A stretch of DNA of 11,733 bases. Source: an uncultured bacterium. Lineage in GTDB: Bacteria; SAR324; NAC60-12. The notes beneath the pieces were generated by a model. That model had not been told where the DNA came from. It made no database searches and was given only the letters and a program-made list of their open reading frames with translations. The stretch lies in contig CAXGMD010000086.1 in assembly GCA_964010765.1 (NCBI GenBank), forward strand, positions 1 to 11,733, read 5' to 3'. This document shows, piece by piece, positions 862 to 11,429 of the stretch. The position numbers were made by a program, and so were the translations under genes. Every line of letters starts with the position of its first letter. Position 1 is the first letter of the stretch.

Positions 862-1191
862 ATGTACACAGCCGTTGCAAATGTAAAGGTTACCCCAGCC
901 TATTGGGAAGCACTGATGAAAAACCCGGATTCAGATCGGGCAGCTGCCATTGCCACAGCCATGGCAAGTGTTGGAGGTAAACTCCATTTCTTTGGTTTTA
1001 CCCACGGCAAGTGGGATGCCATCGTAGCTGGTGAGGCACCCTCTGAGGCTGCTTTTATGTCTGTTATTGCTAGTGCCTGGATGGCAGGAATGATACAGGA
1101 TGTTGAAACGATTCCCTGTATCGCTCAAGAAACAGTTACTGAAGTGATGTCTAAAGCCGGTAGTGCCAATTACAAAGGTCCAGGGCAGTAA
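862..1191 (+). CDS. GYD domain-containing protein (about 109 aa). Start moved from 844 to ATG 862.
   Basis: Family pattern T...W..LMKNP..R..A....MASVGGKL.....THGKWD.IV..EAP, with GKWD at the G-x-Y-D position. AAAGGAG at 851-857 precedes ATG 862, whereas ATG 844 has no SD. Confidence 0.8.
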   Translation: MYTAVANVKVTPAYWEALMKNPDSDRAAAIATAMASVGGKLHFFGFTHGKWDAIVAGEAPSEAAFMSVIASAWMAGMIQDVETIPCIAQETVTEVMSKAGSANYKGPGQ

Positions 1192-1215
1192 TCCCTTCAA
1201 TATCTTACCCCATCA

Positions 1216-1254
1216 AAGCCCTTGCCCCAAGCAGGGGTTTCGCTGTTTACTTTC
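1216..1254 (+). terminator. Probable intrinsic terminator after the GYD gene
   Basis: 10-bp stem AAGCCCTTGC / GCAGGGGTTT (two G:U pairs) with a 5-nt loop CCCAA, 24 nt after the stop, followed by an interrupted T-rich tail. Confidence 0.55.
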
Positions 1255-1386
1255 ATCCGAATAATCTAATTGTTGTTCAGCTGAAAAATGTAAGAACTCT
1301 CGTGCAAAAATTCAGACAAAATAATTTCAAAAATCTAATAAATCACTCAAATAAAAAATTCTATATTTAAAAAATTAGATTTCGTC

Positions 1387-3474
1387 ATGAAAAAGCTTAG
1401 TCTGTTATCTATTATACTTATATTTATTTGTACGTTTTCTTTGAAAGCCAATGAAAATAAAGATAAGGTTTATCAAGTCATATCTGAAGAATCAACAAAC
1501 ATCCCAAGAGAATATTATTCTTTTTTAGAAAATGTCAGTTATCAATTAACTCACAAAGATTTATCGGAAGCTAGCTGGACTTCAAAAATGAAAACTCCCC
1601 AATCTTTCTATGATGGTTATTGGGTAAGATTAAAAGTTAAAAATAAAACAGATAAAGTAAACTTAGGACTGGTTCATAGATGGAATTTTGAAAAAAGAAT
1701 TATTTATAAAAATTCCAATAAAATTTATAGTTTTCCGCTAGTACGCTCAATATACGATAACTACACACATCGATCGGAGGATCGTATTTGGTATAATTAC
1801 AAAATAATAATGCCAAAAGATGAACTAGTCGAAATCTACAGCTATTTCAGAAGTCAACCATTAGATAGAAATCAAATCTTTGAAGGCGGTCTGGATTGGA
1901 TGGCGATTGGGTTATGGCAAGATATTGAATTTAATGAAATTATGAGGTTATTAGGATACGTTGTAATGATCTCAATGTTGATTTGTTTTGGCTTATACTT
2001 TTTATTTTACTTTGTAGTTTCTAACGAAAGATCTTATCTTTGGATTTCAATAACACTCTTAGTTGGATTATATCCTTTTATTACATGGATGCTCAGTTCC
2101 ACATTTGGTATTAGATTTAACTATATTTATGGAGCAATTGGTTTGAGTGTCATGTCGATTGTTCTAATAAAATTTTTCCAGAATTTATTATCCTTCAAGC
2201 AAATATTTCCTAGAACTTATTATGTTTATGGAATCGTCACTAAATTTTATTTTTTTTGTGCATTTATTTATTTTTATGATTCTTTACAATACCCAAATAC
2301 TGAGCTGTATGAAGACATAATAAAATATCCACATCATCCTTGGGGTGTGGGTACAATTCCAATGAATTTAGCGCTTATACCAGTAGGTTTAATATTAGTG
2401 TCAGCAGTTTGCATTTCTTATTTATTATGGCGGAGAGGCGACAAGGTTGCGAGATATCTATTTTTTACTTTTTTAGTACCTGTAATTATATTTCCAACAG
2501 CATTCATGGATATGTGGTTCTTGTTTGAAGCAGGATACACATTAAAAGTCATTAAAGATGTAATACAAGTATTAGCAATTTTGCTAATACTCATCATGCT
2601 TGGAATGGCCCTAGCGCAAAAGTTAAACGACATAAAACAGAGTGCAATTGATCTGTTGGAGGATAAAGTTCTATCCAGAACAAAAGCGTTGACAGAGGCA
2701 AATCAATTAATTACGAAAAGTGTGGATTCAGCTAGCATGATTCAGAATGCAATTTTGCCCAAGTTTGATTATCAAGAACATGGATTTGAAGAGTTAAAAT
2801 ATCTCTGGATGCCCAGGGATGTTGTAGGTGGTGATTTTTATTGGGTTGGCAAAAAAGGAGACTGGACTTGCTTGATGGTAGCGGATTGTACTGGTCATGG
2901 CATACCAGGGGCATTCATGACACTGATCTCCACAACTCTACTGAATCGAGTTAAAGAGATTGTAGATCTTAGCCATCCAGATCAGATCCTAGATTCATTG
3001 GATTTCCTATTGGAAGAGACACTCAAGTTCGATGAGAACACAGGAACTGAATTTGGGCTGGATGGAGGTGTTTGTTGCTTTTCTCGAAAACAAAGTCTTC
3101 TTCGATTTGCGGGAGCAAAGATGAATCTTTATTACAAAGCAGCAAATGAAATCTTTGAACTGAAAGGAAATAAAAAAAGTCTTGGTTATGTAACCAAACC
3201 CCATCCACAAAGCTTTGATGTCCATGATGTCAGTCTAAGTAGTAGCCCCACTTTCTATCTTTTTTCTGATGGGTTGACAGATCAAGTAGGTGGACCCAAG
3301 AAAATTATGTATGGTAAAAAGCGCATCATTCGAAAGATTGGGGAGATTTCAGATCTTGATTTGACAATCCAGAACATTTCACAAGACTTTGAACAATATC
3401 AGGGGAAAAATAGGAGAAGAGACGATATTTCATTATTTGGCTTCCGAGTGAGTAACCAAGAAGAAACCGTGTGA
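1387..3474 (+). CDS. siaA: SiaA-like membrane PP2C/SpoIIE phosphatase with 7TM-DISM sensor (signal peptide, DISMED2-like extracellular domain, 7 TM helices, S-helix, PP2C), copy 1
   Basis: Signal peptide MKKLSLLSIILIFICTFSLKA; YWVRLKVKN (7TMR-DISMED2-like); seven hydrophobic segments; LEDKVLSRT S-helix; PP2C motifs PRDVVGGDFYW, VADCTGHGIPGAFM, FSDGLTDQVGG, RRDDI. Lies directly upstream of siaB/siaC. The symbol reflects position and catalytic domain; the sensor differs from P. aeruginosa SiaA. Confidence 0.85.
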   Translation: MKKLSLLSIILIFICTFSLKANENKDKVYQVISEESTNIPREYYSFLENVSYQLTHKDLSEASWTSKMKTPQSFYDGYWVRLKVKNKTDKVNLGLVHRWNFEKRIIYKNSNKIYSFPLVRSIYDNYTHRSEDRIWYNYKIIMPKDELVEIYSYFRSQPLDRNQIFEGGLDWMAIGLWQDIEFNEIMRLLGYVVMISMLICFGLYFLFYFVVSNERSYLWISITLLVGLYPFITWMLSSTFGIRFNYIYGAIGLSVMSIVLIKFFQNLLSFKQIFPRTYYVYGIVTKFYFFCAFIYFYDSLQYPNTELYEDIIKYPHHPWGVGTIPMNLALIPVGLILVSAVCISYLLWRRGDKVARYLFFTFLVPVIIFPTAFMDMWFLFEAGYTLKVIKDVIQVLAILLILIMLGMALAQKLNDIKQSAIDLLEDKVLSRTKALTEANQLITKSVDSASMIQNAILPKFDYQEHGFEELKYLWMPRDVVGGDFYWVGKKGDWTCLMVADCTGHGIPGAFMTLISTTLLNRVKEIVDLSHPDQILDSLDFLLEETLKFDENTGTEFGLDGGVCCFSRKQSLLRFAGAKMNLYYKAANEIFELKGNKKSLGYVTKPHPQSFDVHDVSLSSSPTFYLFSDGLTDQVGGPKKIMYGKKRIIRKIGEISDLDLTIQNISQDFEQYQGKNRRRDDISLFGFRVSNQEETV

Positions 3475-3489
3475 AAAGATAAAGGTAAA

Positions 3490-4041
3490 ATGGATTCGAT
3501 AAAATTTTATGAACTTCAGAAAACTCTGAAAGAAAACGATATAATGTTTTGTTACAGTGGTTATGTGACGCAAAAAATTTTGGTTGCTATTGGTGAAACA
3601 ATAAAAAAGAAATTAGAGGTTGAAGAAACAGATCTTGGAAAAACCAAAAAGGTTTTCTCGATCTTTGTTGAAGGTGTTCAAAACGTAATTCGCTATTCAG
3701 CAGATTCGATTGGTGAATCTGATGAGCTAGATAATGAAGTACGCTACGGGATAGTCACAATTGGAAATAACCCTGAGGGGATTACTGTTCGGTGCGGAAA
3801 TTTGATTTTTAATAAAGATGTAAATCGAATGAAAGAGCGAGTAAGTTTGATTGAAGGTAAGGACAAGGATGAATTAAAAAAATTATATAAAAAACAGATG
3901 ATGGAAGGGCCTGAGGAAGGCAGTAAGGGTGCTAGTTTGGGATTTTTAGAAATGGCCAGGAGGGCAGGTCATCCTCTTGAATTTTCGTTCGAAGAAGTGA
4001 GTGATGACTACACGTTTTTCTGTATTAACGCGATCATTTGA
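3490..4041 (+). CDS. siaB: SiaB-family protein kinase (DUF6272, GHKL-like fold)
   Basis: FCYSG.VTQ..L..IGE, N-box-like FSIFVEGVQNVIRYS, GN.I, K.ELK.LYK..M, and G-box SKGASLGFLEMARR; AAGGT SD; sits between a PP2C gene and a DUF1987 gene. Confidence 0.92.
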   Translation: MDSIKFYELQKTLKENDIMFCYSGYVTQKILVAIGETIKKKLEVEETDLGKTKKVFSIFVEGVQNVIRYSADSIGESDELDNEVRYGIVTIGNNPEGITVRCGNLIFNKDVNRMKERVSLIEGKDKDELKKLYKKQMMEGPEEGSKGASLGFLEMARRAGHPLEFSFEEVSDDYTFFCINAII

Positions 4042-4049
4042 GTAGAAAA

Positions 4050-4436
4050 ATGGATAATTTAGATATTACAGCTACAGAGACTACTCCAGAAATAAAATTT
4101 GATTTTAGTAACCACCACTTTTTATTTGGTGGAGAATCCTACCCTGAGCACTCTGATGAGTTTTATCGACCAATTTTAGAATCAATCCAACAATATTCAC
4201 AAAATGATTCTAATGAACCTGCAACATTCGTTTTCAAACTAACTTATTTTAATAGTTCAAGTGCTCGAGTGCTGATGAAGCTTTTCGAGCTTATTGATGA
4301 GATGGGAGAAAACAGAGAGATCAATGTTGAATGGCACTACCACGAGGAAGATGACACTATGGAAGAATTTGGGGAAGATTTTTCAGATGATATTGAGAAT
4401 GCTAACTTTAAGTTAATGAGTTACTCTGATGACTGA
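4050..4436 (+). CDS. siaC: SiaC-family regulatory phosphoprotein (DUF1987, STAS-like). Start moved from TTG 4038 to ATG 4050.
   Basis: MDNLDITATETTPEIKFD, GESYPE, FYRPI, LTYFNSSS (phosphoacceptor loop), V.WHY.EEDD.M.E.GEDF are all DUF1987 hallmarks. Confidence 0.93.
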   Translation: MDNLDITATETTPEIKFDFSNHHFLFGGESYPEHSDEFYRPILESIQQYSQNDSNEPATFVFKLTYFNSSSARVLMKLFELIDEMGENREINVEWHYHEEDDTMEEFGEDFSDDIENANFKLMSYSDD

Positions 4437-5415
4437 TTTACTTTCTCATGAAGAATCGATTATTGAGCAGGGTAAACAACGAGTTGATTCAGAAGAAGAA
4501 ATTGAGGCGCGTCACTATGCAGAATTACTCAAGGCCTATATCAAGCTCAATAAGGAGCAAAATCGGCTCATTCGTTTGAGTGATAAAAGTCAAAAAAAAC
4601 TCAGTGTTGCCAATGCTAAATTAGCCAATTTTTCTACGAAACTTTCAAAATACTTCTCCCCGGAGGTTTACAACTCTCTGTTTACCGGTGAACTTGATGT
4701 GAAAGTTCAGACTCAAAGGAAACTCCTGACAATTTTCTTTTCTGATCTCGAAGGCTTTACTGAACTGACAGAAAGATTGGAACCCGAAGTACTCACAGAG
4801 TTGCTTACCCACTATCTCACTGAAATGTCTAAAATTGCGTTGCGGTGGGGAGGAACAATCGACAAGTATATTGGCGACGCAATCATGATTTTCTTTGGTG
4901 ACCCAGCCAGTAAGGGGGAAAAAGCTGATGCTGTCAATTGTGTCAGGATGGCAATGGAGATGGTCGACCAATTGGCTGAAATTCGTGCAATCTGGAAAGA
5001 CAAAGGCCTTGCTCTCCCACTCAATGCGAGAATGGGGATCCACACCGGGATCTGTACCGTTGGGAATTTTGGTTCCGAAGATAGGTTAGATTATACTGTG
5101 ATTGGTAACGGGGTAAACCTCGCTTCTAGGCTGGAAAGCAACGCAAAGCCAAACTCGATCCTTATCTCCGAAGACACCTATCTGCATGTTCGAAGTGAGA
5201 TCAACTGTTCAAAGAATAACACGATCAAGGTCAAAGGTGTCTCGTACCCTGTGCAGACTTATAAAGTCGAAGGACTTATGATGGAACAAGCTGATCAGCT
5301 TGGTTTGACTGAACATCAGATTCCAGGACTTTCGTTAATTCTAGATCAAAGCAAAATTGAAAATCGAGTTCTTGTCAGGAAGAAAATCAAAGAAGTACTA
5401 GATCTACTTGAATAG
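4429..5415 (+). CDS. Soluble class III (IIIb) adenylate cyclase with N-terminal SiaD-like coiled-coil
   Basis: Metal ligands D106 (FFSDLEGFT) and D150 (DKYIGDA), ATP-specifying K146 and T223 (RLDYTVIG), transition-state N230/R234 (VNLASRLE), KVKG. LSKYFSPEV transducer-like element before the domain. No TM segment. 8-nt ATGACTGA overlap with siaC. Confidence 0.93.
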   Translation: MTDLLSHEESIIEQGKQRVDSEEEIEARHYAELLKAYIKLNKEQNRLIRLSDKSQKKLSVANAKLANFSTKLSKYFSPEVYNSLFTGELDVKVQTQRKLLTIFFSDLEGFTELTERLEPEVLTELLTHYLTEMSKIALRWGGTIDKYIGDAIMIFFGDPASKGEKADAVNCVRMAMEMVDQLAEIRAIWKDKGLALPLNARMGIHTGICTVGNFGSEDRLDYTVIGNGVNLASRLESNAKPNSILISEDTYLHVRSEINCSKNNTIKVKGVSYPVQTYKVEGLMMEQADQLGLTEHQIPGLSLILDQSKIENRVLVRKKIKEVLDLLE

Positions 5416-5463
5416 TTTTTTCCCCAATCGCTCTCCTACCGCCCCACTCTCCGTAGCCACCCC

Positions 5464-6612
5464 GTGCAAATTTTTAGAAAAATCAGTGTATGTGCTCTGG
5501 TTATTGCCTTGATCTACTCATTGTTGGGATGCTCCCAACTGGGGGAAAATCCGAGTGGAGCCCACTTGGAAGAACTCCGGAAGTCTCCGAACTATTCCAC
5601 TGAGAACAAGAGGTTCAAAAATCGTAGAGAAAATATTTTTGAAGAAATGCGGAAGAGAGATAGCTTCTGGAAGAATCCCATGAAGCGATTTTCCAATAAT
5701 ATGCTTTTTAACCCCAATCAAACCGTTCCTGAGATAGTACTGCCCGAAATACGGCCTCCTGATCTAAAGGAGTTTTTGAAGCCGACTGAGAGCATTAAAT
5801 TTGTTTGGTTTGGTCACTCAACCCTTCTGATAAATATTCAGAACACTATCATCTTAGTAGATCCCGTCTTCTCAACTTCAGCTTCGCCAGTCAATTTCAT
5901 CGTACCTAGATTTCAACCACCTGTTCTTGAACTCAATGAGTTACCAAAAATCGATGTCGTTTTGATCTCCCATGACCATTATGACCATCTTGATATGAAT
6001 ACTGTTCAGTACTTGAGTAACAAAGTTTCAAAATTTATTGTACCACTGGGGGTCACATCTCACTTGAAAAGCTGGGGGGTGAGTGAAGAGAAGATGGTTG
6101 AACTAGACTGGTGGCAGTCTACTTCATTCGATCAGGTTACCTTTACTTCAACACCAGCCCAACATTTCTCTGGAAGACATGCCCTTTTCAACATATCTCA
6201 AACACTTTGGTCTTCTTGGGTTGTTCAGTCAGCAGATGTCAGCTTTTACTTCAGTGGGGATTCAGGGTACGACGTCCACTACAAACAAATTGGAGACAAG
6301 TTCGGGCCCATTGATTTGGTATTTATTGATAGTGGGCAATACAACGCGCGGTGGCGGGAAGTGCATAATCTACCTGAAGAAGCAGTACAGGCATCCATTG
6401 ATCTCAAGGGACGCTATTTAGTCCCTGTTCATTGGGGCATGTTCAATCTTGCAATCCATAATTGGTATGACCCCATCCAAGAGAGTGTTAGGTTTTCTAA
6501 AAAACATAACGTGAAACTAATGACTCCAAAGCTAGGTCAATTAATTTCAATGGAAGAGCAAACATTGACTATTGATTGGTGGTCTAATCTGATTGGAGAG
6601 ATCAAAAAATAA
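5464..6612 (+). CDS. MBL-fold metallo-hydrolase, NAPE-PLD/RomA-like, predicted lipoprotein
   Basis: WFGHSTLLI, DPVFS, ISHDHYDHLD (HxHxDH), PAQHFSGR, FSGDSGY, VHNLPEEA, PVHWGMF; lipobox LLGC (Cys23) after a hydrophobic stretch; GTG start. Confidence 0.88.
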   Translation: MQIFRKISVCALVIALIYSLLGCSQLGENPSGAHLEELRKSPNYSTENKRFKNRRENIFEEMRKRDSFWKNPMKRFSNNMLFNPNQTVPEIVLPEIRPPDLKEFLKPTESIKFVWFGHSTLLINIQNTIILVDPVFSTSASPVNFIVPRFQPPVLELNELPKIDVVLISHDHYDHLDMNTVQYLSNKVSKFIVPLGVTSHLKSWGVSEEKMVELDWWQSTSFDQVTFTSTPAQHFSGRHALFNISQTLWSSWVVQSADVSFYFSGDSGYDVHYKQIGDKFGPIDLVFIDSGQYNARWREVHNLPEEAVQASIDLKGRYLVPVHWGMFNLAIHNWYDPIQESVRFSKKHNVKLMTPKLGQLISMEEQTLTIDWWSNLIGEIKK

Positions 6613-6648
6613 TCCTCCATTTTAGGAAATAAGATAACTAGAAATCAT

Positions 6649-8733
6649 ATGTTTCGTCTGACAACTCTTACTTACCTAATCACCAGTATCACAATATTCT
6701 CCATGTATATTGCGGGTACTTGTGCTCTTGGGAGTCCGTACGTTTACACTGGTGATTCAAAGATTTCAATCGAGCAATTTCAGTATCTTGAAGACATGGA
6801 CGAAACAACTAGTCTATCTGACCTTAAGAAAGCAAATTGGAAAAGTGAAATTGAGAATATACATTCGTATTATAATGGTTTCTGGGTAAAATTAGTAGTT
6901 CTTAATCAAAGTGATGAATCTGATCTTGGTGTTCGTCACTGGACTACATTTGAAAAGAAATTATATGCAGTAAATTCGAAAGGAATTCAAGAATACGATT
7001 ATATTAAATTTGATGATGATTCTTATAATTTTATTGGTATTGATAGAATCCAATTTCGATATCGGATTGTGATGCCAATCAATGAGATAACTACAATCTA
7101 TAGTTTTTACAGGTTTAAACCTCTCCATAGAACACTATCAACCAGGCATGTGACATTTGGTATCGATAGCTGGGAAAATCTACAATCGCAGGCTTTCTTT
7201 CAAATCATGCGGAATATCTTCTTTTATGCAATACTTATTTATCTTTTTTTAAATAGCATATCATCATTTATTGTGACAAAAGATTCGAACTATTTATGGT
7301 TGACAATTTTACTATTTACTCTGGTATTTTCTGCAATCTATTTATCTGGCTATACCATTGGTTTTCGCGGTAATCCCCACATAGGACAATTAATATTTAG
7401 CTGTGTATTGATTTCAATTATTCAATTTTTTAGAAATTTCTTAAATCTTGATTCTAAAATCATATGTAAATTAATAAATAGCTTAATTATTTTACATTTA
7501 TCGATTATTTTTTACTACTTTATTAGGTCATTTGAATTTCCTGATGGTGAATATTTTACTAACCTTAAAAAGTACCCAATTCAACCATTAGGTATTGGAT
7601 ATTTTCGAATGATTCTTCAGTTTGTACCTACTATCATTTTATTACTTTATTTCGCATTTCTTTCATTCAAATCTTGGCAATCAGGGGATAAAGCCTCAGG
7701 TTACATCGTTTTTGCACTTACGATTCCTGTTGTTTCCTTTGGGATTATGGCAATAATTATTAATCTAGCAAATAAAGGCTACTTTGGACTGGAAATTATT
7801 AATCTTGTTGCATTGCCATTAGGTGGCATACTTTTGATACTTTGTCCAATTGCAATTAATTTAGCGTTAGAAGAGAGAATAAAAGCGTTCAAAGATAATG
7901 CAATGAATAATCTACAGTCCTTGAATACAGAACTTGATAACAAAGTTAGAGAAAGGACTCTTGATCTTCAAAAGGCCAACAACTTAATTACAGACAGTAT
8001 ACAATCCGCCAGCGCGATTCAGTCAGCCATTCTCCCTAGCATTGAACCAAGTCACTACGGCTTCAGCGAACTGGTCTACATTTGGGAACCCAGGGACATC
8101 GTAGGTGGGGATTTCTATTGGGCCCAACAGCAGGAAGACTGGACAGCACTGGTTGTTGCAGACTGCACGGGTCACGGAATTCCTGGCGCTTTTATGACAC
8201 TAATCTCCAGTACAATCTTGGATCGTATCGCTTCACTACATGATCTCAGTCAGCCAGATCGAATTTTAGATCAACTTGACGAGTTATTGAGCCACCAAAC
8301 CTTTAAGTTAAGTGCTGGAGATAGCACAAATTTTGGGCTGGATTGTGGAGTTTGTTGTTTTTCCAAGGCAGAAGGAATCTTACGCTTTGCAGGAGCCAAA
8401 TCAAATCTGTATCAGAAAACGGGGGCAGAGGTAAAAGAGATGAAAGGAGACAAGGTCAGTTTAGGCTATGACTCCAAAGAACACCCGATTCCATTTAAGG
8501 TGATTGAAACCAAGCTCGATGAACATTCGAGCTTCTACCTGTTCTCTGACGGCATCACTGATCAAGTCGGTGGCGCAAAGAATCTAATGTATGGCAAGAA
8601 GCGCCTTTTGCGTCAAATCCAGTCTTCTAGCTCGGTGGCTGAGGCTATAGAAAGAATCATGAAAGATCTGAAGAGCTACCAGGCGGATAACAAAAGAAGA
8701 GATGACCTGACTCTGTTCGGTTTCTCTTTTTAA
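6649..8733 (+). CDS. 7TM-DISM receptor / PP2C (SpoIIE) phosphatase, SiaA-like copy 2
   Basis: Same architecture as 1387-3474: N-terminal hydrophobic signal, FWVKLVVLN, 7 TM, LDNKVRERT S-helix, PRDIVGGDFYW, VADCTGHGIPGAFM, FSDGITDQVGG, RRDDL. Confidence 0.88.
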   Translation: MFRLTTLTYLITSITIFSMYIAGTCALGSPYVYTGDSKISIEQFQYLEDMDETTSLSDLKKANWKSEIENIHSYYNGFWVKLVVLNQSDESDLGVRHWTTFEKKLYAVNSKGIQEYDYIKFDDDSYNFIGIDRIQFRYRIVMPINEITTIYSFYRFKPLHRTLSTRHVTFGIDSWENLQSQAFFQIMRNIFFYAILIYLFLNSISSFIVTKDSNYLWLTILLFTLVFSAIYLSGYTIGFRGNPHIGQLIFSCVLISIIQFFRNFLNLDSKIICKLINSLIILHLSIIFYYFIRSFEFPDGEYFTNLKKYPIQPLGIGYFRMILQFVPTIILLLYFAFLSFKSWQSGDKASGYIVFALTIPVVSFGIMAIIINLANKGYFGLEIINLVALPLGGILLILCPIAINLALEERIKAFKDNAMNNLQSLNTELDNKVRERTLDLQKANNLITDSIQSASAIQSAILPSIEPSHYGFSELVYIWEPRDIVGGDFYWAQQQEDWTALVVADCTGHGIPGAFMTLISSTILDRIASLHDLSQPDRILDQLDELLSHQTFKLSAGDSTNFGLDCGVCCFSKAEGILRFAGAKSNLYQKTGAEVKEMKGDKVSLGYDSKEHPIPFKVIETKLDEHSSFYLFSDGITDQVGGAKNLMYGKKRLLRQIQSSSSVAEAIERIMKDLKSYQADNKRRDDLTLFGFSF

Positions 8734-8835
8734 TTTTTTCCCACGTCGATACTTCTGAACAGGTAATACCTACTTTCAGTCATTTTTATTCAGTTTTTCA
8801 CCTCATTAACCTCACTTAGCTTTTTGAGCCCTCAC

Positions 8836-9906
8836 ATGCAAAGACTCACAAAACTCAGCTTTTTTACATTATGGATGACTGGGGTAGTTGCATGTTCCAG
8901 TGGCGGTTCTTCAAGCAGAATTGACAACAGCACATCAACTAAGGATATTGCAGATGTCGGTACACTTGTAGATCAAGATGAAGATCAAAATGTGAACACT
9001 GATTCCTCAGACAATAGTATCACACCACCGGACATCACCAACCATATCTTCACGAAAGCAGACCCTTCCTGCAGTGCCTACGTTGGTGAGTTCACTTCCA
9101 CGATCAAAGATCTTGGCAATAACCGTACTTTGTCGGGATCACTTTCCATCACAGCGAATGGCAACACCTGCACGATCAGCAGTAACTCGATTCCTAACCA
9201 CGATGTCAATGATACGGGTGCATTTGCAACAACGATTGGCGAGGTCGACGAAACTTTTAGTATCCCTATCTCACCATCTACAGCAAACAGTACCACCCAA
9301 CTTACTCTGCAATACGACAATGCGATTTTTTTAAATGGAGCAAAGCTCGATTTACTCGCTGCAGCCTGTTACGGGGTTGGGCCTGATCCACTTGGAAAAG
9401 AAAAGATTGGTTGTTCGCAGACGAGTATTCCTTGGCGCTATGATCCCATGTACTTGCTGAATCAATTTGGAACAGACTACCACAACGCTCATACGCAACC
9501 GGATGGAGCCTATCATTATCATGGAGATCCTTTAGCCATGTACGACACTTCAGGGCAAACGGCTTCGGGAGTAATTGGTTTTGCTGCTGATGGTTTTCCA
9601 ATTTATGGTCCTTTCATCGATGACAATGGAAGCATACGCAGAGTCACTTCAAGCTATGTCCTCATAGACGATGGAGGTACGCGGCAAAGTCAGGCTGGAG
9701 AGGGAGCATTCCCAGGTGGAAATTATGATGGTACTTATATCGATGATTATGAATACCAGGCTGGCAGTGGAGATCTAGACGAGTGCAATGGAATGGTGAT
9801 CAATGGTCATTACGGATATTTTGTGACAAATGCTTATCCCTGGATTATGAAATGCTTCAGAGGGCGTCCTGACAGTTCCTTCCGCAAGACTTCTGGAAAG
9901 CCTTAA
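8836..9906 (+). CDS. YHYH domain lipoprotein. Start likely ATG 8836 rather than TTG 8824.
   Basis: SNSIPNH, DYHNAHTQPDGAYHYHG, IGFAADGFPIYG, GDLDECNG, YGYFVT..YP....CFRG; lipobox VVAC (Cys20) followed by an S/D/N/T-rich linker. Confidence 0.88.
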   Translation: MQRLTKLSFFTLWMTGVVACSSGGSSSRIDNSTSTKDIADVGTLVDQDEDQNVNTDSSDNSITPPDITNHIFTKADPSCSAYVGEFTSTIKDLGNNRTLSGSLSITANGNTCTISSNSIPNHDVNDTGAFATTIGEVDETFSIPISPSTANSTTQLTLQYDNAIFLNGAKLDLLAAACYGVGPDPLGKEKIGCSQTSIPWRYDPMYLLNQFGTDYHNAHTQPDGAYHYHGDPLAMYDTSGQTASGVIGFAADGFPIYGPFIDDNGSIRRVTSSYVLIDDGGTRQSQAGEGAFPGGNYDGTYIDDYEYQAGSGDLDECNGMVINGHYGYFVTNAYPWIMKCFRGRPDSSFRKTSGKP

Positions 9907-9965: not shown

Positions 9966-11429
9966 ATGAATACAACGTCTAAGGATCGCCCCTCTTCATT
10001 GACCCATCGTCCAGCCTCAGAACTGGCCCAACTGATTCGTCAAAGAGAGGTTACCGCAGAGTCCGTTGTGCAGGCTCATCTCACTCAGATCAAGCACCAC
10101 AATCCGCAAATCAAGGCGATCAGTGTTCTAGCCGAAGAGGAGGCACTCACTAGCGCAAGGCAAGCCGATCAGGAGCTGTCTGCTGGCAGCAACGAAATTG
10201 GTCCACTACATGGGGTGCCCATCACTCTGAAAGATTTGATGATCGTTAAGGGTATGAGAACCACCCGAGGACTACCGCAGTACTGGAACTACAGGCCTTC
10301 CAAGGACTGTGAGTTGGTAGCCCGCTTGCGAAGAGCAGGAGTAATCATCCTTGGTCGCAGTAATGTACCATTTGGATGCTATGACTGGAACTGTCGGAAC
10401 CCAATTTATCCGGAAACAGTAAATCCATGGAATACTGGACGTACTCCTGGCGGGTCATCCGGAGGGGCAGCAGCGGCAATTGCGACTGGGATGACTCCTT
10501 TGGATATGGGCTCTGATCTGGCAGGATCCATTCGCCTTCCTTCTCATTGTTGTGGAATCTTTGGATTGCGCACGACAGATGGACTCCTACCCATGAACGA
10601 TGTGGATCCTGAAGATTTTCCTTCCTCATCTTCATTGCTGACGGTTTGTGGACCAATGGGTCGCAGCATTGCCGATCTTCATTTGATGCTCTCTGTTTTA
10701 GCACCTGAGCAAAGACAGGACACGCCTCCAGTTCCTGAGAAACTGCGGATTGCCCAAACCCATAAAATTCTGGACGTCACCGCTGACGAAGCGACCCAAG
10801 CAGCAATCGGATCTTTTCTGAACAACCTGAGTAAAGAGGGTCACACGGTGACCAGAGATTGTGCACCTGAGGTTGACATGGCGGAGTGTTTTGAATTGTG
10901 GGCGCTGATCACGGGTCATCTCGGCAGTATTTCACTCCCCAAATTGATGCGCACGGAACCCCTCAACTCCATTTTGTTGTTCTACGTGTTGCAGATGCGA
11001 ATGGGTGGCGGCTGGATCGCTCAGAATCTTCGAAATGGATTTCATTCTTCAGAGCAGGATTTTCAAAACGCGTTGGAGCGACTCGTAGAAATTCGGGAAC
11101 AGGTGACAAAGTTCTATGACCAGTATGACCTCTGGATGCTTCCGAACATGCCCGGGCCTGCTTTTGAGAGAACGCGGATGAACTGGAATTTCAAAGTGGA
11201 TGGACACCGAGTTAGCTATGGGACTTACAACGGAACTTATCACTCTACGACTGCGCTGATGGGAACCCCTGGATTGACAGTGCCAATTGGTTTTAGCGAA
11301 GGATTACCACTTAGTGTACAGGTACACAGCAGAGCTTTTTCCGATTTCTGGTTATTGAAGGTGGCTGAACAGCACCTTGAACCCCACGCCGAGATCCGCT
11401 GGCCAAATGGCTTCGGCCCTGCGAGCTAG
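9966..11429 (+). CDS. Amidase-signature family enzyme (FAAH-like amidase)
   Basis: GPLHGVPITLKD (catalytic Lys), NPWNTGRTPGGSSGG (cis-Ser), GSDLAGSIRLP (nucleophilic Ser), GPMGRS..DL, P.L.VP.G...GLP..VQ. Confidence 0.93.
   Translation: MNTTSKDRPSSLTHRPASELAQLIRQREVTAESVVQAHLTQIKHHNPQIKAISVLAEEEALTSARQADQELSAGSNEIGPLHGVPITLKDLMIVKGMRTTRGLPQYWNYRPSKDCELVARLRRAGVIILGRSNVPFGCYDWNCRNPIYPETVNPWNTGRTPGGSSGGAAAAIATGMTPLDMGSDLAGSIRLPSHCCGIFGLRTTDGLLPMNDVDPEDFPSSSSLLTVCGPMGRSIADLHLMLSVLAPEQRQDTPPVPEKLRIAQTHKILDVTADEATQAAIGSFLNNLSKEGHTVTRDCAPEVDMAECFELWALITGHLGSISLPKLMRTEPLNSILLFYVLQMRMGGGWIAQNLRNGFHSSEQDFQNALERLVEIREQVTKFYDQYDLWMLPNMPGPAFERTRMNWNFKVDGHRVSYGTYNGTYHSTTALMGTPGLTVPIGFSEGLPLSVQVHSRAFSDFWLLKVAEQHLEPHAEIRWPNGFGPAS

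Follow-up and report, generated by a model that had tools for sequence, protein, structure and literature searches.

The closest described system is SiaABCD of P. aeruginosa (PDB 7e6g; PMC8457831), in which a PP2C phosphatase, a SiaB-family kinase, SiaC and a soluble enzyme with a helical stalk are likewise encoded in one operon. According to the accessible part of that paper, the stalk of SiaD carries two SiaC-binding motifs, its residues S82 and Q86 hydrogen-bond SiaC T68, and SiaC-SiaD is presented as an atypical activation of one diguanylate cyclase in one pathogen. The same part mentions HsbA-HsbD of P. aeruginosa and BgrV-BgrR of Sinorhizobium, STAS-type switches acting on diguanylate cyclases. 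There too, a second-messenger enzyme is bound and controlled by a small STAS-like protein that can be phosphorylated and whose state depends on a kinase and a PP2C phosphatase, but, compared by description, these switches use a canonical STAS protein and other docking surfaces, with no portable helix described. A second relationship is with CyaB and the class IIIb cyclases anchored by a MASE2 domain (PDB 3r5g).

We analysed a window of 11,733 nucleotides from an uncultured marine SAR324 bacterium, in which a siaA-like gene, a siaB-family gene, siaC and a cyclase gene lie head to tail on the forward strand, siaB and siaC overlapping by 4 nt and siaC and the cyclase gene by 8 nt. As read from the sequence, the cyclase ORF is the last gene of a siaA-siaB-siaC-like operon. 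The siaA-like gene (1387..3474) encodes a sensor phosphatase of 695 aa, with an N-terminal signal/periplasmic part, a multi-pass membrane region and a C-terminal PP2C domain (residues 494-688, Pfam SpoIIE, E 4.1e-16). The NCBIfam SiaA equivalog model NF038263 matches only over model positions 370-657 (E 7.8e-54, 183 bits for a cut-off of 700), that is, the PP2C part alone, so the N-terminal sensor is unlike that of SiaA. The adjoining product of 183 aa (3490..4041; Pfam DUF6272, 2.6e-41) belongs to the SiaB-family kinases (SiaB_fam_kinase NF038262, 189.9 bits for a cut-off of 85) and scores 105 bits with the SiaB equivalog NF038264, under its cut-off of 225. A promoter and terminator scan of 1100-6700 returned sites no commoner than in shuffles (16 vs 16.9 and 3 vs 3.2), hence no operon boundaries. 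Contigs from RNA libraries (four runs, four studies) span siaB-siaC-cyclase, with one contig per run bridging the siaC/cyclase junction, but such contigs are no proof of transcription or of one continuous transcript, DNA carry-over is possible, and the contig-free interval 5388-5500 is uninformative.

The SiaC-family phosphoprotein has 132 aa when counted from TTG 4038 (4038..4436), and ATG 4050 is an alternative start that agrees with the one in relatives. It matches Pfam SiaC PF09345 (DUF1987) with E 4.5e-40 (136.5 bits, cut-off 24.5), and the PDB SiaC chains 6k4f, 6kko and 7e6g match SAR324 SiaC with E about 5e-16. In the phmmer alignment to 6kko and 7e6g, S73 occupies the position of the P. 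aeruginosa phospho-site T68, a Ser in place of a Thr. Among 12 SAR324 SiaCs, N72-S73 is invariant and S74 nearly so.

The output gene is where this locus departs from SiaABCD: where SiaD is a GGDEF diguanylate cyclase, the SAR324 output belongs to the class III adenylate cyclases and would make cAMP as its messenger. The ORF (4429..5415, 328 aa) consists of N-terminal helices, a SiaC-receiver module and a CyaB-like linker, catalytic domain and tail. Its sole domain is Guanylate_cyc (PF00211, 1.8e-29, 103 bits), which gives a class III, IIIb-type catalytic domain at residues 92-281 (4702..5271); GGDEF is absent, and neither MASE2 nor the SiaD model NF038266 gave a match at E<=0.01. The catalytic residues D106, D150, K146, T223, N230 and R234 are all present; in alignment A4, no variation is seen at D106, D150, N230 and R234, and T223 is nearly invariant. 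We take D106 and D150 to be the metal-binding Asp pair, N230 and R234 the transition-state pair and K146 and T223 the substrate pair. On these roles, K146 and T223 point to ATP, which is probably the substrate, and a guanylate cyclase was set aside.

Residues 92-280 match PDB 3r5g 'CyaB' with E 1.4e-66, and a 455-aa protein from a Pseudomonadales-order genome, made of a MASE2 domain (E 2.7e-20) and a cyclase, aligns without gaps to residues 54-311 only (48% identity, E 2e-92), which places the junction of the chimera. The alignment includes the EHQIPGLSLILD tail. The likeness to CyaB, tail included, that the earlier note had described is thus borne out. Shared with the MASE2-anchored cyclases are the 'KY.SP.VY' linker, the catalytic domain and the C-terminal tail. 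The linker (4642..4701, with LSKYFSPEV at 4642-4668), which connects the N-terminal long helix with the catalytic domain and bears the transducer-like element LSKYFSPEVYNSLF, is conserved in alignment A4, and this element is also found in the MASE2 CyaB-like protein. The C-terminal extension (residues 282-328, 5272..5412), with EHQIPGLSLILDQSKIEN, is predicted by AlphaFold2 as a beta-hairpin plus helix (helix 284-290, strands 293-298 and 301-306, helix 313-327); it is kept among siaC-linked cyclases, and the MASE2 protein aligns up to residue 311. Unlike CyaB with its membrane anchor, the SAR324 cyclase has SiaC-receiver helices and no membrane segment in its first 53 residues, so that a phospho-switch protein would provide the input in place of a membrane domain. 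When the whole cyclase was searched for homologues, the 120 matches listed held only SAR324 copies 96-100% identical.

AlphaFold2 (30-row alignment, mean pLDDT 85.7) predicts helices 2-21, 24-73 and 78-86 ahead of the catalytic domain. One third of residues 1-78 are D, E, K or R, and the 19-residue Kyte-Doolittle mean reaches at most 0.18 in windows starting at residues 1-77, in agreement with the earlier description of this end as helical, charged and devoid of a transmembrane segment. The SiaC-receiver module as profiled (residues 22-71, 4492..4641) lies within the long helix; it contains the stretch Y37-Q55, YIKLNKEQNRLIRLSDKSQ, at 4537-4593, where the earlier note had placed it, and the core contact motif R46-L-I-R-L-S-D-K-S-Q55 (4564..4593), equivalent to SiaD K77-Q86. 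The SiaD repeat that the note had given is indeed present in PDB chain 7e6g_A.

A profile built from 18 SAR324 siaC neighbours only (A1) ranked SiaD 7e6g_A second among 177,635 PDB sequences with E 0.095, a designed coiled coil being first. After one iteration (A2, 51 rows), SiaD came first with E 2.3e-6 and 30.1 bits, on both published SiaC-binding motifs; the significant match requires this iteration, which took in SiaD-like GGDEF proteins. A single-sequence phmmer search of PDB with residues 1-95 did not find SiaD at E<=10. The proposed alignment to SiaD stalks therefore holds with a profile and fails with a single sequence. At the profile level, the helix motif of the cyclase and the SiaC-binding motifs in the stalk of SiaD are homologues. 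Both alignments have the module of this cyclase as their first row, and the profile made from SAR324 siaC neighbours only matches 488 protein clusters at E<=1e-3. There is one match in the cyclase, as the note had counted one R..R.SD unit, whereas SiaD has two tandem motifs (SiaD2:SiaC4); two matches occur in 6 of 149 library hits. These two-module proteins also show weak DUF1815 matches (E 1.6e-4 to 8.6e-4), under the cut-off. For the pentamer-to-dimer step of SiaD there is no known counterpart in the cyclase.

Residue by residue, R46, L47, R49, L50, S51, D52, K53 and Q55 align with the SiaD contacts K77, V78, R80, I81, S82, D83, R84 and Q86, giving a common stalk core [KR]-[VL]-x-R-[IL]-S-D-[RK]-x-Q. 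The contact face of SiaC is kept as well: Y70, N72, S73, S74, M80, E84, D114 and D118 correspond to Y65, N67, T68, S69, M75, D79, E110 and D114 of P. aeruginosa. Besides the Ser for Thr at the phospho-site, several peripheral contacts are lost, with R74, Y85, M88, R90 and D91 of SiaD replaced by E43, S54, K57, S59 and V60 in the cyclase, and R103 and I71 of P. aeruginosa SiaC by T107 and A76. R103 of SiaC and D91 of SiaD form a pair, of which both partners are replaced here (T107/V60).

We modelled a complex of two cyclase and two SiaC chains, as the note had proposed, and obtained a score of 0.74 (best control 0.02). Among solved complexes 116 of 157 attain this mark, against 2 of 215 among mismatched pairs, although a job of 2+2 chains with its own alignments is unlike the tool's calibration set. 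The runs shared at least 83% of contacts, with a partner pLDDT of at least 89. The predicted interface involves E43, R46-K56 and S59 of the cyclase and residues 15, 33, 35, 39, 70, 72-74, 76-77, 80, 107, 110-111 and 114 of SiaC, and is equivalent in the model to the interface of the SiaC-SiaD crystal; the score may reflect a memory of the 7e6g structure.

From the module to the catalytic domain, spacings differ by multiples of seven residues, the pattern of an uninterrupted coiled coil; for the linker of this cyclase, with 54 residues from D52 to the metal-binding D106, the heptad series is 47/54/61/68. One heptad phase is common to 39 of 45 cyclases, 46 of 55 histidine kinases and 26 of 37 GGDEF proteins, with four to five lengths in each class. 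The coiled-coil control suggested in the note fits this periodicity.

Across 88 SAR324 genomes, SiaC and the module occurred together in 27, SiaC only in 2, the module only in 1 and neither in 58, counts drawn from related and hence non-independent genomes. By hand tally, 30 of 40 SAR324 module matches lie at most about 3.1 kb from siaC, the other 10 being off the siaC contigs. A six-frame profile search of the 3.86-Mb genome from which the window comes gave two module matches, both in cyclases of its two siaC loci, out of 12 cyclase-domain matches. Cyclase domains are present in 84 of the 88 genomes. Of the 59 siaC-negative genomes, 55 have class III cyclases and one has any module match; the motif is thus uncommon in cyclases of genomes lacking siaC, where equal frequency would have spoken against the note.

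Outside SAR324, we retrieved 80 siaC loci with a SiaC alignment (A3). Module-bearing ORFs numbered 69, in 65 loci, and 52 of them lie directly downstream of siaC, within 150 nt; 12 loci lacked a module match although 2.7 kb or more of sequence followed downstream. Five whole genomes were also searched, and in four of them the gene adjoining siaC gave the best module match. The 80 loci were the ones closest to SAR324 SiaC, which biases the proportions of output types among them. By hand tally, the 69 ORFs comprise 24 cyclases, 20 GGDEF proteins, 14 histidine kinases, 5 HD_5, 1 SpoIIE, 3 without a domain and 2 with GAF only, in ORFs cut at a contig end. Likewise tallied by hand, 98 library hits comprise 47 histidine kinases, 25 GGDEF, 12 cyclases, 3 SpoIIE, 2 HD_5, 6 without a domain and one each with PAS only, a SiaC domain or a PEPCK fragment. 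The module thus heads signalling enzymes of five or more kinds (class III cyclases, GGDEF proteins, histidine kinases, HD-GYP and PP2C proteins), and the portability put forward in the note extends to all of them, near siaC.

We consider it likely that the ORF 4429-5415 encodes a soluble adenylate cyclase of class IIIb, the output of a SiaA/SiaB/SiaC-type switch, acting through a helix dimer clamped by SiaC. The long helices of two cyclase chains would pair in parallel, and two unphosphorylated SiaC would clamp the pair at R46-Q55, S73 sitting between the helices and facing S51 and Q55, while the acidic E84, D114 and D118 of SiaC may form pairs with R46, R49 and K53. Continuing in heptad register via LSKYFSPEV into the catalytic dimer, the clamped coiled coil would set cAMP synthesis, which clamping most likely turns on. 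Phosphorylation of S73 by SiaB would release SiaC, and the membrane phosphatase SiaA would undo it upon an envelope or external signal. We infer SiaC binding, the 2:2 stoichiometry and activation over inhibition.

SiaC could also bind the helix and inhibit the cyclase or shift it between states, by keeping the register of the catalytic dimer unproductive, which we regard as unlikely. Such a view gains from the presence of the module on enzymes of opposite effect (GGDEF proteins make c-di-GMP and HD-GYP proteins break it down; kinases are opposed by PP2C phosphatases), for which one and the same clamp could not have 'on' as its physiological meaning throughout, and from the linker lengths, which vary among output types. 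However, the linker phase is constant within each output class, which is what a productive clamped state would give, and class III cyclases require a dimer to form their active sites. In the only studied case, as far as the accessible part of the paper goes, SiaC activates SiaD by stabilising its parallel dimer (PMC8457831).

That the helix is instead a dimerisation or docking element for SiaB or SiaA, or a co-evolving scaffold, with SiaC acting elsewhere, seems to us quite improbable. SiaB-like genes are found in 77 of the 80 siaC loci and PP2C genes in 65, so that linkage alone cannot tell which partner is bound; the conserved core nevertheless maps residue by residue onto the crystallographic SiaC contacts of SiaD, the SiaC face touching SiaD is conserved likewise, and the predicted complex puts SiaC S73 on S51 and Q55. 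Least probable of all, and very much so, is that the helix resembles the SiaD stalk by convergence or through generic coiled-coil composition, the cyclase being merely co-transcribed with a Sia switch of a distant target. The module is indeed short and rich in K, R, E, L and Q, a designed coiled coil heads the A1 search, a beta-lactamase reaches E 0.0059 with A2, and the single-sequence search missed SiaD. But composition does not give the invariant non-heptad Y37 and D52 (of the S-D pair), whole-genome searches return one or two module matches per genome, adjoining siaC, intermediates with 'RIARISD.[YF]Q' bridge to SiaD, and the 55 siaC-negative genomes with cyclases are essentially without the module.

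We located no account of siaC-linked class III cyclases or of a portable docking helix in the accessible parts of the SiaC/SiaB/SiaD/DUF1987 literature (including PMC7647112, PMC12834913 and PMC9239204). We lean towards the view that the helix of 50 residues represents a transferable domain, so far uncatalogued, that receives SiaC and brings heptad-phased dimeric enzymes, even unlinked ones, under a Ser/Thr phospho-switch. If so, one SiaB/SiaC pair would govern cAMP signalling, both the formation and the breakdown of c-di-GMP, two-component phosphorelays as well as further PP2C switches, and SiaC targets would be predictable from sequence alone. As a general input module, it would make the Sia switch a signalling chassis of broad use, its outputs being cAMP, c-di-GMP and phosphorelays, in Proteobacteria, Desulfobacterota, Campylobacterota, SAR324 and others, and would give a predicted input to hundreds of 'sensor-less' soluble cyclases and kinases. 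The seven-residue spacing would then be a handle on how catalytic domains read a coiled-coil clamp, and a rule for fusion design. The module profile is ready for use as that of a new domain family.

Module-bearing proteins of roughly 750 aa also occur in SAR324 genomes in which no output gene adjoins the siaBC pairs; these proteins are candidate unlinked targets.

On the + strand of the window, four genes form a tight array (1387-5415): they encode a 695-aa membrane protein with a PP2C/SpoIIE domain at its C-terminal end (1387-3474), a SiaB-family kinase (3490-4041; DUF6272; NF038262, 189.9 bits for a cut-off of 85), a SiaC-family phosphoprotein (4038-4436; PF09345, 4.5e-40) and a cyclase of 328 aa (4429-5415), whose gene overlaps siaC by 8 nt and whose sole Pfam domain is a class III cyclase domain (residues 99-281). 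Judged from the organism names attached to near-identical proteins, the window comes from a SAR324 bacterium. Sequence comparisons support reading this locus as a Sia partner switch connected to an adenylate cyclase via a portable, predicted SiaC-receiver helix, hereafter the module (cyclase residues 22-71). DUF1987 proteins were proposed to modulate adjacent proteins, other outputs not being shown in the accessible part of that article (PMC8457831). In the portions of the SiaC/DUF1987 literature available to us, we found no description of siaC-linked class III cyclases or of a portable helix.

An earlier note, whose quoted sequence letters and positions match the window exactly, had described the cyclase as a chimera with a helical N-terminus lacking a TM segment and a CyaB-like remainder. 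AlphaFold2 (30-row alignment, mean pLDDT 85.7) indeed places helices at 2-21, 24-73 and 78-86 before the catalytic domain, and the 19-residue hydropathy means starting at residues 1-77 reach a maximum of 0.18. PDB 3r5g ('CyaB') matches residues 92-280 with an E-value of 1.4e-66. Among 251 sampled genomes from the order containing a Hahella MAG, 104 had CyaB-like matches (E<=1e-40); one of these matches is a protein of 455 aa that includes a MASE2 domain (2.7e-20) and aligns without gaps to cyclase residues 54-311 at 48% identity, C-terminal tail included. Since this relative aligns from residue 54, the CyaB homology starts immediately past the R46-Q55 core, so that the label of chimera is a fair one. 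The substrate is probably ATP, given the presence of K146 and T223, which we take to be the substrate-specifying residues.

The module was also said to resemble the stalk of SiaD, the P. aeruginosa diguanylate cyclase. A single-sequence PDB search with cyclase residues 1-95 did not find SiaD and we therefore built a profile from which SiaD was left out (A1), with 18 rows comprising the window protein and SAR324 siaC neighbours, which have a 50-residue N-terminal block in common. With A1, SiaD (7e6g_A) ranked second of 177,635 PDB sequences (E 0.095), behind a designed coiled coil, its proximal motif being aligned and its distal motif weakly so. Among 1.84 billion cluster representatives, A1 had 488 protein matches with E<=1e-3, of which 65 reached E<=1e-10; in nearly all of them the module lies at residues 25-75. 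A second profile (A2), made of the window protein and 50 of these matches, placed SiaD on top of the PDB (E 2.3e-6, 30.1 bits) and matched each of its two motifs separately; the likeness to the stalk thus holds at the profile level. A stretch resembling 'KGYEKALRQMGDRVTMSDRFETELNEA' also led three beta-lactamase chains (3qhy_A, 6w33_A and 6w34_A; E from 0.0059 to 0.13) to match A2 at positions 14-40, probably by chance.

In the accessible part of the structural study (PMC8457831), SiaD contacts SiaC through R74, K77, V78, R80, I81, S82, D83, R84, Y85, Q86, M88, R90 and D91, S82 and Q86 are hydrogen-bonded to the SiaC phospho-site T68, and a second, similar motif lies upstream of the first. In the A2 register (SiaD number = cyclase number + 31), the conserved contacts are R46=K77, L47=V78, R49=R80, L50=I81, S51=S82, D52=D83, K53=R84 and Q55=Q86; those changed from SiaD to the cyclase are R74 to E43, Y85 to S54, M88 to K57, R90 to S59 and D91 to V60. 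When the window SiaC was compared with the crystallised SiaC by phmmer, the counterparts were Y70=Y65, N72=N67, S73=T68, S74=S69, M80=M75, E84=D79, D114=E110 and D118=D114; A76 occupies the I71 position, and T107 that of R103, the partner of SiaD D91.

A 2:2 model of module (A2) and SiaC (A3, the SiaC alignment) scored 0.74 (0.76, 0.74 and 0.74 in three runs) versus 0.02 for the best control; of 157 solved complexes, 116 came up to that mark, as did 2 of 215 mismatched pairs, though this job was unlike the tool's calibration. Contacts agreed between runs to at least 83%, with a partner pLDDT of at least 89. The modelled interface comprises E43, R46-K56 and S59 of the cyclase and SiaC residues 15, 33, 35, 39, 70, 72-74, 76-77, 80, 107, 110-111 and 114, S73 contacting L47, I48, L50, S51, D52 and Q55. 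The modelled 2:2 complex, of the kind that the earlier note had suggested predicting, matches the SiaC-SiaD interface, but memory of 7e6g may explain this pass; what was modelled is the transposed crystal interface, which shows likeness and not binding by the window copy.

For 223 non-identical module proteins, we measured how far the Asp of the S-D pair, which is invariant, lies from a landmark in the catalytic domain. The main series were 47, 54, 61 and 68 to the metal Asp of cyclases (39 of 45 in one heptad phase), 22, 29, 36, 43 and 50 to the phospho-His of histidine kinases (46 of 55), and 90, 97, 104, 111 and 125 to the GGDEF motif (26 of 37, with 10 more off by one); the spacing is 54 in the window protein and 68 in its paralogue. 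Lengths stepping by exact multiples of seven are a requirement of a continuous coiled coil. This spacing fits a clamp on the helix pair that would be read out by the catalytic dimer.

SiaC is present in 29 of 88 SAR324 genomes. By hand tally, 27 of the 88 carry both SiaC and the module, two SiaC without the module (siaC lying on contigs of ~2 kb in both), one the module without SiaC and 58 neither. The motif is thus not equally common without siaC: it occurs in 1 of 59 SiaC-less genomes, though 55 of these have cyclase domains (84 of the 88 overall). Thirty of 40 SAR324 module matches lie on the siaC contig, at most about 3.1 kb away. Outside SAR324, we retrieved with the SiaC alignment the 80 loci closest to the SAR324 SiaC (Alpha-, Beta- and Gammaproteobacteria, Desulfobacterota, Campylobacterota, Magnetococcales and one Bacteroidales MAG). 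At E<=0.01, the module was found in 69 of 3,139 ORFs, spread over 65 of the 80 loci, so that the linkage of the fused helix to siaC extends beyond SAR324; the genomes counted are related and these linkage figures not independent. Fifty-two of the 69 ORFs lie on the same strand directly 3' of siaC (<=150 nt), five one gene further 3' and eight just 5' of it. Of the 80 loci, 77 also hold SiaB-like genes and 65 PP2C genes. Three of the 15 module-less loci have less than 500 nt of sequence past siaC. In a Sulfurimonas MAG (L128:7399-8352, +), the gene directly 3' of siaC encodes a very basic N-terminus followed by a divergent 'KIMLRSDQRQ' core that the profile misses; 65 of 80 may thus be an undercount. 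In four of five whole genomes from these taxa the best module match is the gene beside siaC, and three of those four have no further match (E<=1e-3).

Six SAR324 genomes carry the module in an open frame of 735-777 aa off siaC contigs (G081:C41, G083:C41, G084:C3, G085:C33, G086:C40 and G087:C9). Five of them have a siaB-siaC pair elsewhere, without a module-bearing neighbour in four cases, and these proteins may be SiaC targets in trans.

The portability proposed for the helix is supported by its outputs (hand tallies from Pfam tables). The twelve SAR324 siaC neighbours scanned with Pfam comprise five cyclases (one with GAF), four histidine kinases, two HD-GYP proteins (HD_5) and one PP2C. 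The 69 siaC-linked ORFs comprise 24 cyclases, 20 GGDEF proteins, 14 histidine kinases, five HD_5 proteins (three with GAF), one SpoIIE, two with GAF only (cut by contig ends) and three without a domain; the 98 library matches of at least 170 aa comprise, respectively, 12, 25 (four with PAS), 47 (many of them hybrids containing REC and Hpt), two and three, plus one with PAS only, one with a SiaC domain, one PEPCK fragment and six without a domain. Pfam scans of the window proteins and the 98 library matches found no Pfam-A model covering the module. The NCBIfam SiaD model matches the GGDEF proteins with the module from about position 44-57 and under its cut-off, and by this measure they are SiaD-like, not SiaD. 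Six of 149 matches (P0129, P0145, P0156, P0177, P0208 and P0225) have two modules ~140 residues apart, with SiaD-like 'RIARISD.[YF]Q' cores and GGDEF or histidine kinase outputs; weak DUF1815 matches (E<=0.01) lie between the modules in three of four scanned. P0221 (250 aa), with a SiaC domain (6-102) and the module (163-212) on one chain, is either a genuine switch-receiver fusion or a merged gene call. One siaC-linked module cyclase (L052:7387-8682, +) has an additional C-terminal Diacid_rec domain (PF05651, 8.6e-20). At L033 (G079:C16) and L034 (G076:C84), a pair of kinase-like genes comes after siaC, and with it two consecutive module outputs, HD-GYP then histidine kinase, so that a single switch locus has two different outputs.

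In the genome to which the window belongs as contig C86 (3.86-Mb assembly, 92% complete), there are 12 matches to cyclase domains, of which just the two within siaC loci carry the module. The other locus, on contig C144 (L032:1-6105, -), encodes on the - strand SiaC (5228-5653), SiaB (4677-5204), two short ORFs of 152 and 131 aa, a PP2C of 470 aa, the paralogous module cyclase (1268-2317) and another PP2C, incomplete at the contig end; on the upstream side of siaC the contig stops within yet another PP2C gene. In the window, no tie to the Sia operon was evident for the genes assigned by Pfam to a pentapeptide-repeat protein (139-666, -), a GYD-domain protein (844-1191, +), a metallo-beta-lactamase-fold lipoprotein-like protein (5464-6612, +), a YHYH protein (8824-9906, +) and an amidase (9966-11429, +). 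A second SiaA-like phosphatase of 694 aa (6649-8733, +; 7TMR-DISM_7TM 1e-5, SpoIIE 1.7e-22, PP2C part of the SiaA model 3.2e-55) lies 1.2 kb 3' of the cyclase without siaB or siaC of its own, and may be a second sensor acting on the same SiaC.
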